Positions 9,325 through 62,848 of a DNA stretch of 64,000 nucleotides are shown here, in pieces (within the stretch, counting starts at the first letter, position 1; every line of letters begins with the position of its first letter). This stretch comes from Octopus vulgaris (taxonomy: Eukaryota): contig OX597823.1 in assembly GCA_951406725.2 (NCBI GenBank), positions 7,130,001 to 7,194,000 of the forward strand, in the 5' to 3' direction. The notes under the pieces were generated by a model. That model worked only from the letters and a program-made list of their open reading frames with translations, ran no database searches and was not told where the DNA came from. The position numbers and the translations under genes were made by a program.

Positions 9325-9671
9325 ACTCGACTCGACTGGCTTCTGTGCCGGTAGCACATAAAAAGCACCATCTGAATGTGGCCGATGCCAGCGCCGCCTC
9401 GACTGGCTCCAGTGCTGGTGGCATGTTAAAAGCTCCAACCGATCGTGACCGATGCCGGACCCCCCCTGGCACCTGTGCAGGTGGCACGTAAAAAGCACCC
9501 ACTACACTCACAGAGTGGTTGGCATTAGGAAGGGCATCCAGCTGTAGAAACTCTACCAGAACAGACTGGAGCCTGGTGCAGCCCCTGGCTTCCCAGACCC
9601 CGGTCGAACCATCCAACCCATGCTAGTGCGGAAAACGGATGTTAAACGATGATGATGATGATGATGATGAT
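9325..9671 (+). mobile_element. Bipartite RTE-tail non-autonomous element (family C)
   Basis: GGCACGTAAAAAGCACC repeats, ggaagggcatccagctgtag motif, ccaacccatgctag..gttaaacg(ATG)n tail. Confidence 0.85.
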
Positions 9672-16492: not shown

Positions 16493-16825
16493 TCATCATC
16501 ATCATCATCATCATCATCGTTTAGCGTCCGTTTTCCATGCTAGCATGGGTTGGACGGTTCTACTGGGGTCTGTGAAGCCAGAAGGCTTCATCAGGCCCAG
16601 TCAAATCTGGCAGTGTTTCTACGGCTGGATGCCCTTCCTAACGCCAACCACTCCGTGAGTGTAGTGGGTGCTTTTTACGTGCCACCCGCACAGGTGCCAG
16701 ACAGAGCTGGCAAACGGCCATGAACGGATGGTGCTTTTTATGTGCCACCAGCACGGGGGCCAGGCGAGGCTGGCAACGGACACGAACGGATGGTGCTTTT
16801 TACGTGTCACCGGCACGAGGCCAGT
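16493..16825 (-). mobile_element. Family C bipartite RTE-tail element
   Basis: (CAT)n tail and internal repeats in reverse. Confidence 0.88.
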
Positions 16826-23300: not shown

Positions 23301-24432
23301 TGAAAAGATAGACCAGTTCACTTAGAAGATTGTACATGGTTACTTGGCATGAAAATCTCAAAGCATAGAAGGCATTGATCAAGTCAAAAGCCTTGCATTG
23401 TGTACCAACAAGTTTATGACATCCCATTTTGAAGGCTACCTCTGTGTAATTCAAGACCAACAGATCCCTGTCAAGTACATACAGTACCAGAAGCAGAAAA
23501 CATTGACAAACACCAAATGTAGGTTGTGCAGAAACTATACTGAACACATCAACCACATTATTGCTAACTGCGAGAGAATGTCTTCCAGACATTATTTCTT
23601 TCCCGTTGCCAGCCTCACCTGGCTCCCGTGCCGGTGACACGTAAAAAGCACCATCCGTTTGTGGCCATTGCCAGCCTCGCCTGGCCCCCCATGCCGGTGG
23701 CACATAAAAAGCACCATCCGATCGTGGCCTCTTGCCAGACTCATCTGGCATCTGTGCCGGTGGCACGTAAAAAGCACCCACTACACTCATGGAGTGGTTG
23801 GTGTTAGGAAGGGCATCCAGCCGTAGAAACATTGCCAGATCAAACTGGGCCTGGTGCAGCCTTCTGGCTTCCCAGACCCCAGTTGAACTGTCCAACCCAT
23901 GCTAGCATGGAAAGCGGACGCTAAACGATGATGATGATGATGATGAATCATGATGCAGGGGCCAGAAATGTCTGGAACAGGATAACAAAAGAGAAAACAC
24001 CTACAGATGAAATTGACAATATTGAGATGGATGAGTCAAAAGAATATTGACGGAACTTAAAGATTGAGGCAGCCGCCAAGTTAAAGCACAACCAGCCAGA
24101 TATTGTTGTATGAAACCACAAGGAAAAGGTATGTTCTGATGTGGAAATCAGCAGCTCTCTGAATACCAATGGGGTTAGAGAAATACAAGAGCAAGAGGAC
24201 ATCAATGAACCATTGATAAGGAATTTGTAAATCTTGTATGCAGGATACACTTTCAGTTTCATACTGATTTTTGGAGCAACAGGATACACACCAACCCATT
24301 TGGAGCAAAGTATAGCAGAACTTAGGTTCTGGGAGAGAATTCATACACTACAATTCATACACTGAATTTATACACTACAAATGATCACAATACCTGGGGC
24401 TATAAGAATCTGCAAGACCTTAAGATTTAAAG
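23300..24432 (+). mobile_element. R4/Dong/NeSL-like non-LTR element, 3' part (CCHC + restriction-like endonuclease)
   Basis: EGYLCVIQDQ, KCRLCRNYTEHINHIIANC, later HD and NQPDIVV..VEIS motifs. Confidence 0.8.
23600..23945 (+). mobile_element. Family C element nested in the RLE LINE
   Basis: Three internal repeat units and (ATG)n tail. Confidence 0.88.
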
Positions 24433-25261: not shown

Positions 25262-25716
25262 AAATCGAAATCGGAATCGAAATTGAACCAATCCTATGAC
25301 TGGCACCTGGCAGATGCCAGGACCCCTAGACTGGAGATACGTAAAAAGCACTATCCGAATCATGTCTGATGCCAGGGCCGCCCCATCTGGCTTCCGTGTC
25401 GGTGGCATGTAAAAAGCACCATCTGAATCGTGGCTGATGCCAGTGCCGCCTCGACTGGCTTCCGTGCAGGTGGCACGTAAAATGCACCAATCCGACCGTG
25501 GCCGATGTCAGCCTCGCCTGGCACCAGTGCAGGTGGCACGTAAAAAGCACCCACTACACTCACGGAGTGGTTGGCGTTAGGAAGGGCATCCAGCTGTAGA
25601 AACATTGCCAGATAAGACCGGAGCTTGGTGCAGCCTTCTGGCTTCCCAGATCCCCGGTCGAACCGTCCAACCCATGCTAGCATGGAGAACGGACGTTAAA
25701 CGATGATGATGATGAT
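25262..25716 (+). mobile_element. Family C element, longest copy
   Basis: (GAAATC)n start, four GCACGTAAAAAGCAC-type units, (ATG)n tail. Confidence 0.88.
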
Positions 25717-46664: not shown

Positions 46665-46713
<49 letters not shown>

Positions 46714-46782
46714 TCAGCAAAATTTAGATTCAAATGAATATGGTACTTAAGTCAGAGGCACCAGAATTTTGTATGGTATTAT

Positions 46783-46822
<40 letters not shown>

Positions 46823-47190: not shown

Positions 47191-48340
47191 TGAGGGGATA
47201 TCCAAAAGTAACTGGAAATATTTGTAGATTCAGACTTCCATCACTAGAAGAAGCCACTTGATGCAATCCTCAGGTACCAGTTTGCCGAGCAGCATCGTTG
47301 GCTGAGGTCGGATTGCCATGCTGGAGCATTTTTGTCTTGCAGTGCTTCTCCTTTGTTCATCAATTTCTGCGATGGCTGAAACAAAGGAACAGCATACTTC
47401 TATGAAATTCTGTTTGCTGCTGGGGAAGACAGAAATCGAAACAGTTGTCATGTTTCAAACAGCTTATGAGGATGCTGCCATGAATGAAACACAAGTTTAC
47501 GAGTGGTTTCTATGCTTTAGGAATGGTCACTTGCTACTTGAAGACCAGCCTTTCTCAGGACGATTGTTGACCTCCTGAACGAATGAAAACATTATGGAAA
47601 TTCATGAACTGATCTTGGAGGACCATCACCAAACATTTGACAAATTTGTTGATATGACTGGTGTGTCCTAGAGCTCCTACCAACGAATTTTGAGTGAAGA
47701 GTAGCAGCAGAACTTTTGCCTCACTTGCTCATCATCATCGTTTAATGTCCAGTTTCCATGCTAGCATGGGTTGGACGATTTGACTGAGATCTGGTGAACC
47801 AGACTCCAATCTGATTTGGCAGAGTTTCTACAGCTGGATACCAATCACTCTGAGAGTGTAGTGGGTGCTTTTACGTGCCACCAGCACGAGGGCCAGTTTG
47901 GTGGTACTGGCACCAGCCATGCTCAAATGGTGCTTTTTATGTGCCACCTGCACAGGAGCCAGTCCAGCGGCACTGGCAACGACCTCGCTCGAATGTTTTT
48001 TTTTTTTGGAAGATCAAAAGCAGTCATGATTGAAGGCGTGTGATAAACTGAAAGAATAATTGGAAGTTGATTTGGACCTTTCTTCAAAGGTCATCACTGG
48101 TGACGAAAGCTGATCTTATGGAATTCGCTGATGTGGGAGAGGGGAAGGAAAAACGATGGAGGTGTTAAAAGGTATCACTTCGCAAGAGTTCAAGCACTGC
48201 TTTGAATAGTGGAAAATGTGCCTGAACCAATGCATCGCTTCAAATAGCAAATACTTTGAAGGCAATAAAAGTGTAAACATGTACAGCTAAGTGAATAAAA
48301 TAATATTGCAAAATTCTGGTTTCTTTTGGGTACCCCCTTG
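47191..48340 (+). mobile_element. Decayed mariner with nested family C copy (47731-47995, minus)
   Basis: TIRs gaggggatatccaaaagtaactggaa / ttctggtttcttttgggtacccccttg|TA; MKFC..LGKT...VYEWF..F..G and ITGDES motifs. Confidence 0.85.
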
Positions 48341-50965: not shown

Positions 50966-51867
50966 CAGAGTGTTTCAAAAAATTTGGTATTATTTTGCAA
51001 TCTAATAACTTTGCCAGTTCTTGTTCAAACAACCTCAGATTTTAACAGCATGTGTAGAAACAGGTAAAAGTTTTATGTTTAATATTTGATATGTTTATCT
51101 TTTCAGATGCACAAATGGCATTCACTGGAAGAGGAAAGGCGTTTTGCGTGTTGGAGTATGCTTGAACACACTCGAACAAGACTGTGCAGCATGCATTTGT
51201 GAGAGAGTTCTCTAGAAAGTCATGAAAAGTAATGCAGATTTGGGCATGGCAGAAAAAATTCAAAGAGGAAGGCTGTCTGTGCAGGGCAAAAGGATCTGGA
51301 GGATCACTAACATTGGAAGAGATGGTCAAGCAAATTCACCAAAAGCTCTTGCAAATCCCCAAGAAGTCCATTAGAAGAACAAGTTGGGAAACCCAGATTC
51401 CCCCAACAACTGTTTGGTGCATCCCAAGGAAATGCTTGCAAATGAAACCCTTCAAGCTGCAGCTCATTCAAGCCATAACAGCAGATGACAAGCAAAAGTG
51501 CAAACAGTTGTGTTGATATGCAAGAGAAACTTGAAGAAGCCAAGTTCAAGGAACGTCTTGTTTTCAATGACGAGGCCACATTTCATACATATGGTATAGT
51601 TAATAAAGATAATGTTCACATTTGGGGTGAAGAAAATGCCCATGCCACAGTTGGGCATGCAGGTGGTGCGCATATTGAACATTTGTGAAATTGTTCATGG
51701 AATCTACATAGCTTTGAATTTCTCATTCAAATCTGGAGGAATAAATCTTACGTTGCTCAACATTTTTACTTTCATTTTTACTTTCATTTTTACTTTCATT
51801 TGCTTTGACTATGTGGTTTCTGTGATATTGATATCTCAAATGATATCAAATTTTTTGAAACACCCTA
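50966..51867 (+). mobile_element. Decayed Tc1/mariner-superfamily transposon
   Basis: TIRs cagagtgtttcaaaaaatttg / caaattttttgaaacacccta; PKKSIRR..IPPTTVW..KPFKLQL and FNDEATFH..G.VN..N.HIWGEEN motifs. Confidence 0.85.
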
Positions 51868-51870
51868 TAA

Positions 51871-51921
<51 letters not shown>

Positions 51922-52121
51922 GTGAAGAAAATGTGGGCATGCAGGTAGATATTGAACATTTGTGAAATTGTTCATGGAATCTACATAGCTTTGAATTTCT
52001 CATTCAAATCTGGAGGAATAAATCTTACGTTGCTCAACATTTTTACCATGGAAAGCGGACGCTAAATGATGATGATAAATATATATGTATGTGTATGTGT
52101 ATATAAATATGTGTATGTATA

Positions 52122-52159
<38 letters not shown>

Positions 52160-52161
<2 letters not shown>

Positions 52162-52470
52162 CCCTCCCTACTGATAGATCTAAATAACAAGGTGAACTTA
52201 GCCGTAAAATCTACAGACAGAGAATGAACATACTACCATCATGTTCTTAATGATGAAATTAACCTCTCTGTCTATATATCGACCCTCTTTGTAATGTTGG
52301 CAAATGAAATAGGGATAAGAATGTGCATTGCCTGTTTAATTGAAAAATTCTATATGTGGCTGAAGATTGCTCGACATTTTAAAACTGATGTAATACTTAC
52401 AGTGTTTAATAAAATGAAGTAGCATGAAACAATTGTACCACACTACCTTGGATATCTTTGTTGCTTATTT

Positions 52471-52472
<2 letters not shown>
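52160..52472 (+). mobile_element. Hammerhead-bearing insert between (TA)n tracts (PLE 3' end-like)
   Basis: Unique ~310 bp bounded by TA runs; contains an intact hammerhead. Confidence 0.7.
52355..52442 (+). ncRNA. Type I hammerhead ribozyme, intact core, long stem II
   Basis: TGTGG-CTGAAGA-T TGCT...AGCA T-GAAA-CAATTG-TA-CCACA; predicted cleavage after 52437 (GUA). Confidence 0.85.
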
Positions 52473-52549
<77 letters not shown>

Positions 52550-52716: not shown

Positions 52717-53571
52717 CAAGGTGGTATCAAAAAGTTCCCAGACTAGTTCTGTAGTGTGCCAACAGATGGCAGCACATGGTTACATGCGCAGTGAGAGCTT
52801 GCAGTGACCTTCATAAGACATATGTGCTGAGTGAGATCACTGTGTTTACTTCACAAGTTGTGAAATTTGTGTTTTTGTGATCATGTGTATGCTGTAGTTT
52901 GCAATTTTATCATGGACAAGAACAAAGAGCCAACGTGAAATTTTGTGCCAAACTTGGGAAGTCTGCTATAGAGACATTGAACATGCTTCGGTAAGCTTAC
53001 AGCAAAGAGGCAATGGGTCTTCCCTGGAAATTGGTGACTGATCTGGAAGACCTGCCATGAGCATCAACCCTGAAAATGTGATAACGTGCATCAAGAATTT
53101 GTCCTCCAGAGCCAGACCATCAATTGAGAGTTCTACAGCAATGTTTTGCAACATTTGAGGGAGGACATTCACTGAAAGCAACCGGATCTGTGGAGCGCAA
53201 AGAATTGGATTCTTTACTAAGCTCTCCTCACTCACGAGTTTCTCACCAAAAACAACATGCTATTGTTTCTGCACCTGCCCTATTTGCTAGATTTAGCTCC
53301 TGCAGACTTCCATTTCTTCCTCAAGATGAAAATGCAGCTCAAAGGTTGCTGTTTTAACACCATTGTGGAGATACAGAGTGAATTGAAGAAGATCCTCAAC
53401 CCACTTACAGAAAGCAGCTTCCAAGCCAGATTCCAAAAGTGACAAGAACTCTGGGACCAGTGTGTTGCTGCGCAAGATGACTATTTTGAAGGATATGATA
53501 TTAAAACTTATTAAAAATAAGTTACTTTTTATCAAACATAACTAGTCCAGGAACCTTTTGATACAACCTTG
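52717..53571 (+). mobile_element. Decayed mariner (DD34D)
   Basis: TIRs caaggtggtatcaaaaagttcc / ggaaccttttgatacaaccttg|TA; HLPYLLDLAPADFHFFLKMK motif. Confidence 0.88.
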
Positions 53572-62319: not shown

Positions 62320-62848
62320 TATCAATATGAAGCAGCATAAAGAATGGCTTAGCCCCGGTAAACAAGCAACACTGCGTGTGAAACAAGATCTTCATCCGCA
62401 TAAAACGATGTTGTGAATATGGTGGGACTGGGAAGGGATTATCCATTACAAATTGCTTGAATGGAACCAAACGGTAAATGCGGAACTCTATGCTCAACAG
62501 ATGGAACGACTCAACATGGCTATTCAAAAGAAAAGACCTAATCGGCAGCACAAGGTTCTTCTGCTGCACGACAACGCCCACCCTCATATTGCCAGTATGT
62601 CCAAGGAAGCCATTCAAATGCATGGCTGGGAAGTGCTGCCACACCCCAATACTCTCCTGATTTGGTACCAATGGATTTTCACCTCCTTCGATCTCTTTCA
62701 AATGCTCTGCATGGAGTTTCATTCAATACTGATGCAGAATTGAGAGCTTGGATCAATTTTCAAGTTGAAATCGAGTGATTTCTACCAACAAAGAATTGAA
62801 AATTTTGTTGAACGTTGGGAAGAAGTTGTAAACAACAAGGGTGAGTAC
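62320..62848 (+). mobile_element. Mariner (DD34D) transposase fragment
   Basis: LHPHKTML..WWDW, NQTVNAELY, LLHDNAHPH, GWEVLPHP..SPDLVP.DFHL motifs. Confidence 0.9.

Follow-up and report, generated by a model that had tools for sequence, protein, structure and literature searches.

A type I hammerhead motif with a long stem II in a truncated Penelope-like element of Octopus vulgaris

The window, a 64,000-nt stretch of Octopus vulgaris DNA (GenBank assembly GCA_951406725.2, contig OX597823.1, positions 7,130,001 to 7,194,000, forward strand), contains a hammerhead motif at positions 52355-52442. The reading we prefer, with a probability of about 0.7, is that of a type I hammerhead in the pseudo-LTR of a Neptune-type Penelope-like element (PLE), present here as a passive, 5'-truncated copy and likely to be cut slowly after A52437 as a dimer formed through the palindromic stem III, probably with the help of a protein. 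In a full-length transcript, two hammerheads would pair and excise a unit-length RNA, which may be re-ligated and then copied; selection would work on the transposing lineage and not on the window copy.

Hammerhead motif in the window

The motif comprised the following parts:

52355..52359 (+), stem I 5' strand UGUGG, pairs with CCACA at 52438-42
52360..52366 (+), core C3-A9, CUGAAGA
52367..52425 (+), stem II, 59 nt: U.U at 10.1/11.1, 4-bp helix, 7-bp middle helix, distal hairpin
52426..52429 (+), core G12-A15.1, GAAA
52429..52436 (+), palindromic stem III ACAAUUGU, 8 bp predicted with a second copy
52437 (+), A17 in the GUA triplet, with the cut predicted 3' of it
52438..52442 (+), CCACA, the 3' strand of stem I; CUACA in the family majority

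The core nucleotides, listed as complete in the original prediction, were all located (CUGAAGA at 52360-66, GAAA at 52426-29, U52436 and A52437) and correspond to the type I core CUGANGA ... GAAA ... UH. Sequence inspection assigned U16.1 to position 52436 and A17 to 52437, and hammerhead numbering puts the cut 3' of A17. The self-complementary stem III was also found as described, with the palindrome ACAAUUGU at 52429-36. The 5-bp stem I UGUGG/CCACA is present, but its all-Watson-Crick pairing hinges on C52439, where the column majority is T and would give G.U. The stem II helices UGCU/AGCA and CAUUUUA/UAAAAUG were recovered together with a distal hairpin UGUAA/UUACA; however, the core-side opening is a U52367.U52425 mismatch that had gone unmentioned, so that the usual, though not absolute, purine10.1-pyrimidine11.1 pair is replaced by U.U. 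Three helices with covariation were found, of which stem III has just 2-3 bp in the monomer.

A chance fold was rejected because a strict hammerhead descriptor matched once in the window and never in 200 control sequences of 64 kb drawn from a Markov-1 model. Fold stability alone was unexceptional (z = -1.23), and Rfam hammerhead models gave 0 matches in the window at the gathering score. We regard the motif at 52355-52442 as a real type I hammerhead with a predicted cleavage site.

Locus, flanks and genomic family

The motif lies within an insertion between simple repeats:

52075..52159 (no strand), (TA)n/(TG)n run flanking the insertion on its 5' side
52160..52474 (+), 5'-truncated 3' end (3' UTR / pseudo-LTR) of a Neptune-type PLE
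52473..52544 (no strand), (TA)n run flanking the insertion on its 3' side
46710..46792 (-), a second, detached piece of this family: 83 bp of the optional 3' tail, lying between TA runs and lacking a hammerhead

The segment of about 310 bp had been called unique. It is repetitive: a search of the genome (2.8 Gb, 227 contigs) with the 313-bp segment returned 2,711 candidate copies, and 39 other scored places were 90-96% identical. Among 30 fetched copies the 5' ends were variable, and there were two fixed 3' ends before (TA)n, about 35 nt (15/30) or about 135 nt (13/30) past the cut, with 2/30 ending between them. The optional tail of the long-ended copies is about 100-120 nt, and the window copy has the shorter of the two ends, stopping about 35 nt after the predicted cut. 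The U.U at 10.1/11.1 occurred in 28/30 aligned copies. The window copy departs from the column majority at 2/120 sites, a figure biased by a set chosen for its likeness to this copy. The family was also present in assembled contigs of four public runs guessed to be RNA, although such contigs reveal neither ends nor strand nor level; contigs that ended near 52436-37 were discounted because the family differs from the window copy at 52439.

No host gene was evident around the copy among 45 open frames, and the window fragment has no promoter or ORF left. The copy is an orphan, passive 3' fragment; selection would act on the transposing lineage. Its identity as a non-LTR retrozyme was rejected: such an element is a short non-coding tandem repeat, whereas there is a single copy at this locus, continuous with a coding element in relatives.

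Other repeats were observed in the window. Positions 51622-51768 and 51921-52047 are a near-identical duplicate flanking a (TG)n run, in an apparent decayed Tc1/mariner remnant, and further mariner-like remnants lie at 47402-47692, 53086-53490 and 62402-62848. Tandem units of 62-68 bp of a common SINE-like repeat were found at 9331-9499, 16667-16824, 23606-23778, 25339-25551 and 47864-47995.

Parent element

The original prediction had proposed a search for copies and an autonomous partner, and both were found, the latter as a relative at locus L157 and as other two-hammerhead loci. Upstream of the motif, four loci (L012, L016, L018, L032) encoded a GIY-YIG C-terminus, which in longer copies lies about 1 kb upstream and is accompanied by a Cys-rich linker. 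Pfam matched the GIY-YIG domain (PF01541) in 1/4 proteins scanned, with 23.9 bits against a cut-off of 22.6; of the other ORFs, two gave nothing and a third an unrelated sub-threshold match alone, and the reverse transcriptase (RT) was unmatched. A PDB sequence search gave 0 matches, and ESM Atlas linked the first half of the ORF to clusters with RVT_1, HTH_animal and DUF8422. A single ORF combining RT with a C-terminal GIY-YIG, characteristic of EN+ PLEs, was seen in relatives and not in the window fragment. In the window copy's own subfamily, L070 had broken RT frames 61-73% identical to a sister ORF, and among 150 places scored with the subfamily C-terminus those at least 89% identical had open frames of at most 293 aa. 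A young sister family contained several ORFs of 950-984 aa.

At L157 the order is hammerhead, 954-aa ORF, 1.5-kb UTR and hammerhead, with an inverted copy upstream. The two hammerheads are 4,678 nt apart, and in full-length sister elements the motif likewise occurs twice, at a distance of 4.6-4.7 kb, on either side of an RT-EN ORF. Two hammerheads in direct orientation, both intact, were present in 11/18 loci examined; in two-repeat loci the length of the 5' repeat lay between 144 and about 1,200 nt. As in EN+ PLEs, the relatives had hammerhead-bearing direct repeats of pseudo-LTR type, copies inverted at the 5' end and an optional tail. By this anatomy the parent is an EN+ Penelope-like element. 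The Cys-rich linker between RT and endonuclease (EN) that marks Neptune was found as CxC-x5-C-x5-C before GIY-YIG, and motifs that we take to be Neptune's place the element in Neptune rather than Nematis; the label "Neptune-type" is provisional, being based on this linker and these motifs and not on a tree. The linker spacing differs from the CX2-5CxxC shorthand in the accessible text of Craig et al.

Private variants common to both pseudo-LTRs of single young elements were observed at L158, L173, L168/L169, L171 and L172. The sequences of L157, L158 and L165-L173 suggest that both pseudo-LTRs are regenerated from one template in each round. Shared private variants and a variable 5' repeat fit over-copying of a re-ligated circle, and template switching on uncut RNA fits equally. 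Degenerate copies of the PLE ORF were also seen in a tandem array that repeats about every 8.9 kb (G000:C29:29653202-29689430).

Conservation and selection on the fold

In a covariation set of 17 hand-picked, related representatives of the clade, 89.7% of cells were paired, 10/28 pairs had changed on both sides, and the covariation score was 0.329 against 0.02-0.10 in slid controls. The pair count alone was within the range of shuffles, being reached by 38/500. RNAalifold recovered stem I, proximal stem II and the distal hairpin; these parts also showed covariation, and the middle helix hardly any. Across sister families, stems I, II and III covary.

The possibility that homologous copies do not conserve the core had been named as a test of the prediction. 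The catalytic core was invariant in 17/17 representatives, sister families included, and also in loci found by protein search rather than by the motif. Among inserted copies, departure from the majority was 2.7% per site in the core and in stem II alike, and all 11 core positions were kept in 21/30 copies. Since core and stem II decay equally, selection would act on transposing lineages and not on inserted copies.

Length of stem II and the 10.1/11.1 pair

Motifs with the window's stem III were counted by stem II length: 3,483 had 8-30 nt (control 8), 2,134 had 31-49 nt (control 3) and 9,138 had 50-70 nt (control 4). A stem II of 50-70 nt is the majority class and the genomic norm among motifs with this stem III. 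Since 9,138 motifs fall in this class and 3,483 have 8-30 nt, the long stem is a local norm and its length is labile. The view that it is unusual for a minimal PLE hammerhead held against the published descriptor (stem II 3-7 bp, loop 3-10 nt; 59 nt here versus a maximum of about 26 nt) but not within this genome. No description of a stem II of about 60 nt was found in the PLE hammerhead literature searched; Lunse et al. 2017 and Arkhipova et al. 2017, outside that search, may describe long-stem variants. Long stem II is a labile appendage that varies from 13 to 70 nt across families, and the window clade keeps 57-60 nt.

At 10.1/11.1, the PLE hammerheads here had G-C, G.U, A-U or U.U. Short-stem-II families with the same stem III (L104-L115 among others) carried A.G, A.C, A.A, A-U or U-A at these positions; because they vary there, 10.1/11.1 is barely constrained in these hammerheads. 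Another long-stem-II hammerhead family, with G10.1-C11.1, mostly GUC triplets and different stem III palindromes, was seen at L021:243-335, L127:229-320, L150:718 and L158:8871.

Folding and evidence on cutting

In the predicted monomer, stem III had 2 bp with a pair probability of 0.08. Two 98-nt RNAs formed a double hammerhead as the cofold minimum free energy (MFE) structure, at -42.6 versus 2 x -16.1 kcal/mol, that is, 10.4 kcal/mol below two monomers; cofolding via the palindrome was predicted in 11/17 representatives and absent in 6/17. The central pair of the palindrome switches between A-U and G-C, and a monomer could form it solely with a 2-nt loop. Among the 9,138 long-stem motifs, intermediates at this pair were G.U in 1,877 and A.C in 315, whereas symmetric CpG decay expects equal numbers. 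The G.U excess fits intermolecular pairing, though it reflects few lineages. In the accessible text of two studies, PLE hammerheads have low activity and cut slowly, as dimers (Cervera and De la Pena 2014, PMC4209133) or with assistance from the element's protein (PMC11167929).

The window copy had been put forward as the best candidate for a live ribozyme. That ranking was not supported: the copy is an orphan 3' fragment, the strict descriptor found no second hammerhead in the window, and in the proposed construct 52330-52470 stem I is predicted to be lost (pair probability 0.00), the 3' flank to 52470 abolishing it in monomer and dimer predictions. For tests, full-length young elements that carry a pair of hammerheads and an intact ORF are better suited.

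A genomic footprint of cutting was looked for and not found. The 5' junctions showed no excess at the cut, with 13 loci among 46 matches versus 19 loci among 55 matches at a site 6 nt downstream that served as control (sorted by eye), and in the young sister family no junction at the cut was among those listed, the nearest being at +22 and -60. Five or six inversion junctions join at CTAC (e.g., G000 C11:30710559, C13:10225785 and C14:60709250). Since CTAC is found after the cut as well as on stem II's opposite strand, these junctions are microhomology-guided and not evidence of cutting. Every copy with an intact 3' hammerhead derives from RNA that was uncut or re-ligated there. For the anole PLE, ribozyme mutants are reported to have had no effect on insertion in vitro (PMC11167929).

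Two other explanations differ from the dimer reading in what the fold does. The window copy could be an efficient stand-alone monomeric ribozyme in which the long stem II gives tertiary contacts; it has all core bases, five Watson-Crick pairs in stem I owing to C52439, and few departures from the majority in the set biased toward it. We consider this very improbable, given the 2-bp stem III of the monomer, flanks that abolish the predicted stem I, a terminal loop of stem II that is 3 nt long and variable, and a fragment lacking promoter and ORF. Alternatively, the pseudo-LTR may retain the fold for a structural or protein-binding role, for instance close to where RT starts, with negligible cleavage in vivo. 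The failed search for a footprint agrees with that, as do positions 10.1/11.1, unpaired in 8/17 representatives, and the anole PLE, for which the accessible text reports uncut RNA as the dominant substrate and no reads ending at the cut (PMC11167929). A purely structural role is nevertheless unlikely: the catalytic core and the GUA triplet do not vary between families whose stem II differs widely, loci from the protein search included, and natural U10.1-U11.1 is the best-tolerated mismatch according to the accessible part of Perreault et al. 2011 (PMC3088659).

Poly(A)-signal-like hexamer in stem II

Two further features concern possible 3'-end processing:

52408..52413 (+), AATAAA hexamer on the stem II 3' strand and 24 nt ahead of the predicted cut, a candidate signal for polyadenylation
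52455..52472 (+), U/GU-rich stretch that sister families conserve, a candidate for a downstream poly(A) element or for the region where RT starts

AATAAA and ATTAAA are the two common poly(A) hexamers, and the hexamer in the clade alternates solely between them. It was present in 70/72 motifs passing a crude clade filter, out of 117 collected. The sole unusual trait of the motif is a long arm with a conserved poly(A)-signal-like hexamer, whose role as a signal is putative; the hexamer may be the element's poly(A) signal.

Stem II could accordingly be long because it houses a polyadenylation signal. Host 3'-end processing would then occur near the ribozyme cut, folding would decide between mRNA and a template cut by the ribozyme, and the 5' repeat's signal could be hidden by the hairpin. 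This is consistent with A(A/T)TAAA in 16/17 representatives, located 23-26 nt ahead of the cut on the middle helix's 3' strand, the partner strand being free to change and take mismatches; with 7,334 hexamer-bearing motifs genome-wide (control 0); with a U/GU-rich stretch at +17 to +28 in 7/7 loci inspected; and with pairing of 4/6 hexamer bases in the predicted fold. The region is AT-rich, however, and the distal hairpin is equally conserved in sequence. The hexamer was inherited and not acquired independently, because it belongs to one clade, and unrelated long-stem-II families (L074, L076, L085, L088, L097) lack it. Moreover, genomic copies extend 35 or 135 nt beyond the site, and their templates were therefore not processed there; nor was any poly(A) junction observed. 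We hold this explanation to be improbable, to about the same degree as the structural one. A fuller version, in which a Neptune-type PLE clade built a polyadenylation signal into stem II and host processing and ribozyme compete at one site, is quite doubtful; there, polyadenylation would yield mRNA, dimer cleavage with re-ligation a circular template, and over-copying would regenerate both pseudo-LTRs.

Significance and comparison with known systems

The window locus alone adds little on the in vivo role of PLE hammerheads. The family supplies thousands of long-stem-II motifs beyond the published descriptor and Rfam; because both miss such motifs, PLE hammerheads are undercounted. The young intact elements, with paired hammerheads and natural 10.1/11.1 variants, suit direct tests of the dimer, circle and polyadenylation ideas.

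The closest known counterparts are the minimal and small-palindromic type I hammerheads of metazoan PLEs. In the accessible text of PMC4209133 these likewise lie in pseudo-LTRs of an element with RT and GIY-YIG, have a short stem I and a palindromic stem III, and occur mostly as lone, truncated motifs; in Fig. S3, the row for Hydra apparently has the same U...U flanking of helix II. The descriptor there allows a stem II of 3-7 bp with a loop of 3-10 nt, and rows of Fig. S3 reach about 23 nt, whereas stem II here has 57-60 nt in three helices. G10.1-C11.1 is described there as highly conserved, unlike here, where G-C, G.U, A-U and U.U all occur. The natural U10.1-U11.1 hammerheads (Perreault et al. 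2011, PMC3088659) also open stem II with U.U and have a weak palindromic stem III in repetitive type I motifs; the accessible part of that paper does not tie them to a long stem II or to the present element family.

The hammerhead of Anolis PAc (Poseidon; Frangieh et al. 2024, PMC11167929) resembles the present one, in the available sections, in its pLTR location, its AT-rich targets, an optional tail delimited by two 3' ends, and copies made from RNA intact at the ribozyme. In PAc, stem II contains the start of the ORF and the tail measures 30-40 bp, whereas in the present elements the ATG follows the cut at a distance of about 210 nt and the tail measures about 100-120 nt. Neptune and Nematis EN+ PLEs, as covered in the accessible part of Craig et al. 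2021 (bioRxiv 10.1101/2021.04.23.441226), share RT, a Cys-rich linker, a C-terminal GIY-YIG, tandem and inverted copies, and insertion into microsatellites; long Asn-rich ORF inserts and a 3' UTR of 1-1.5 kb distinguish the present elements. Metazoan non-LTR retrozymes (PMC7761336, accessible text) are similar in their type I hammerhead, dimer-type stem III and probable mobilisation by PLEs, but they are short non-coding tandem repeats, whereas the window copy is a fragment of a coding element.
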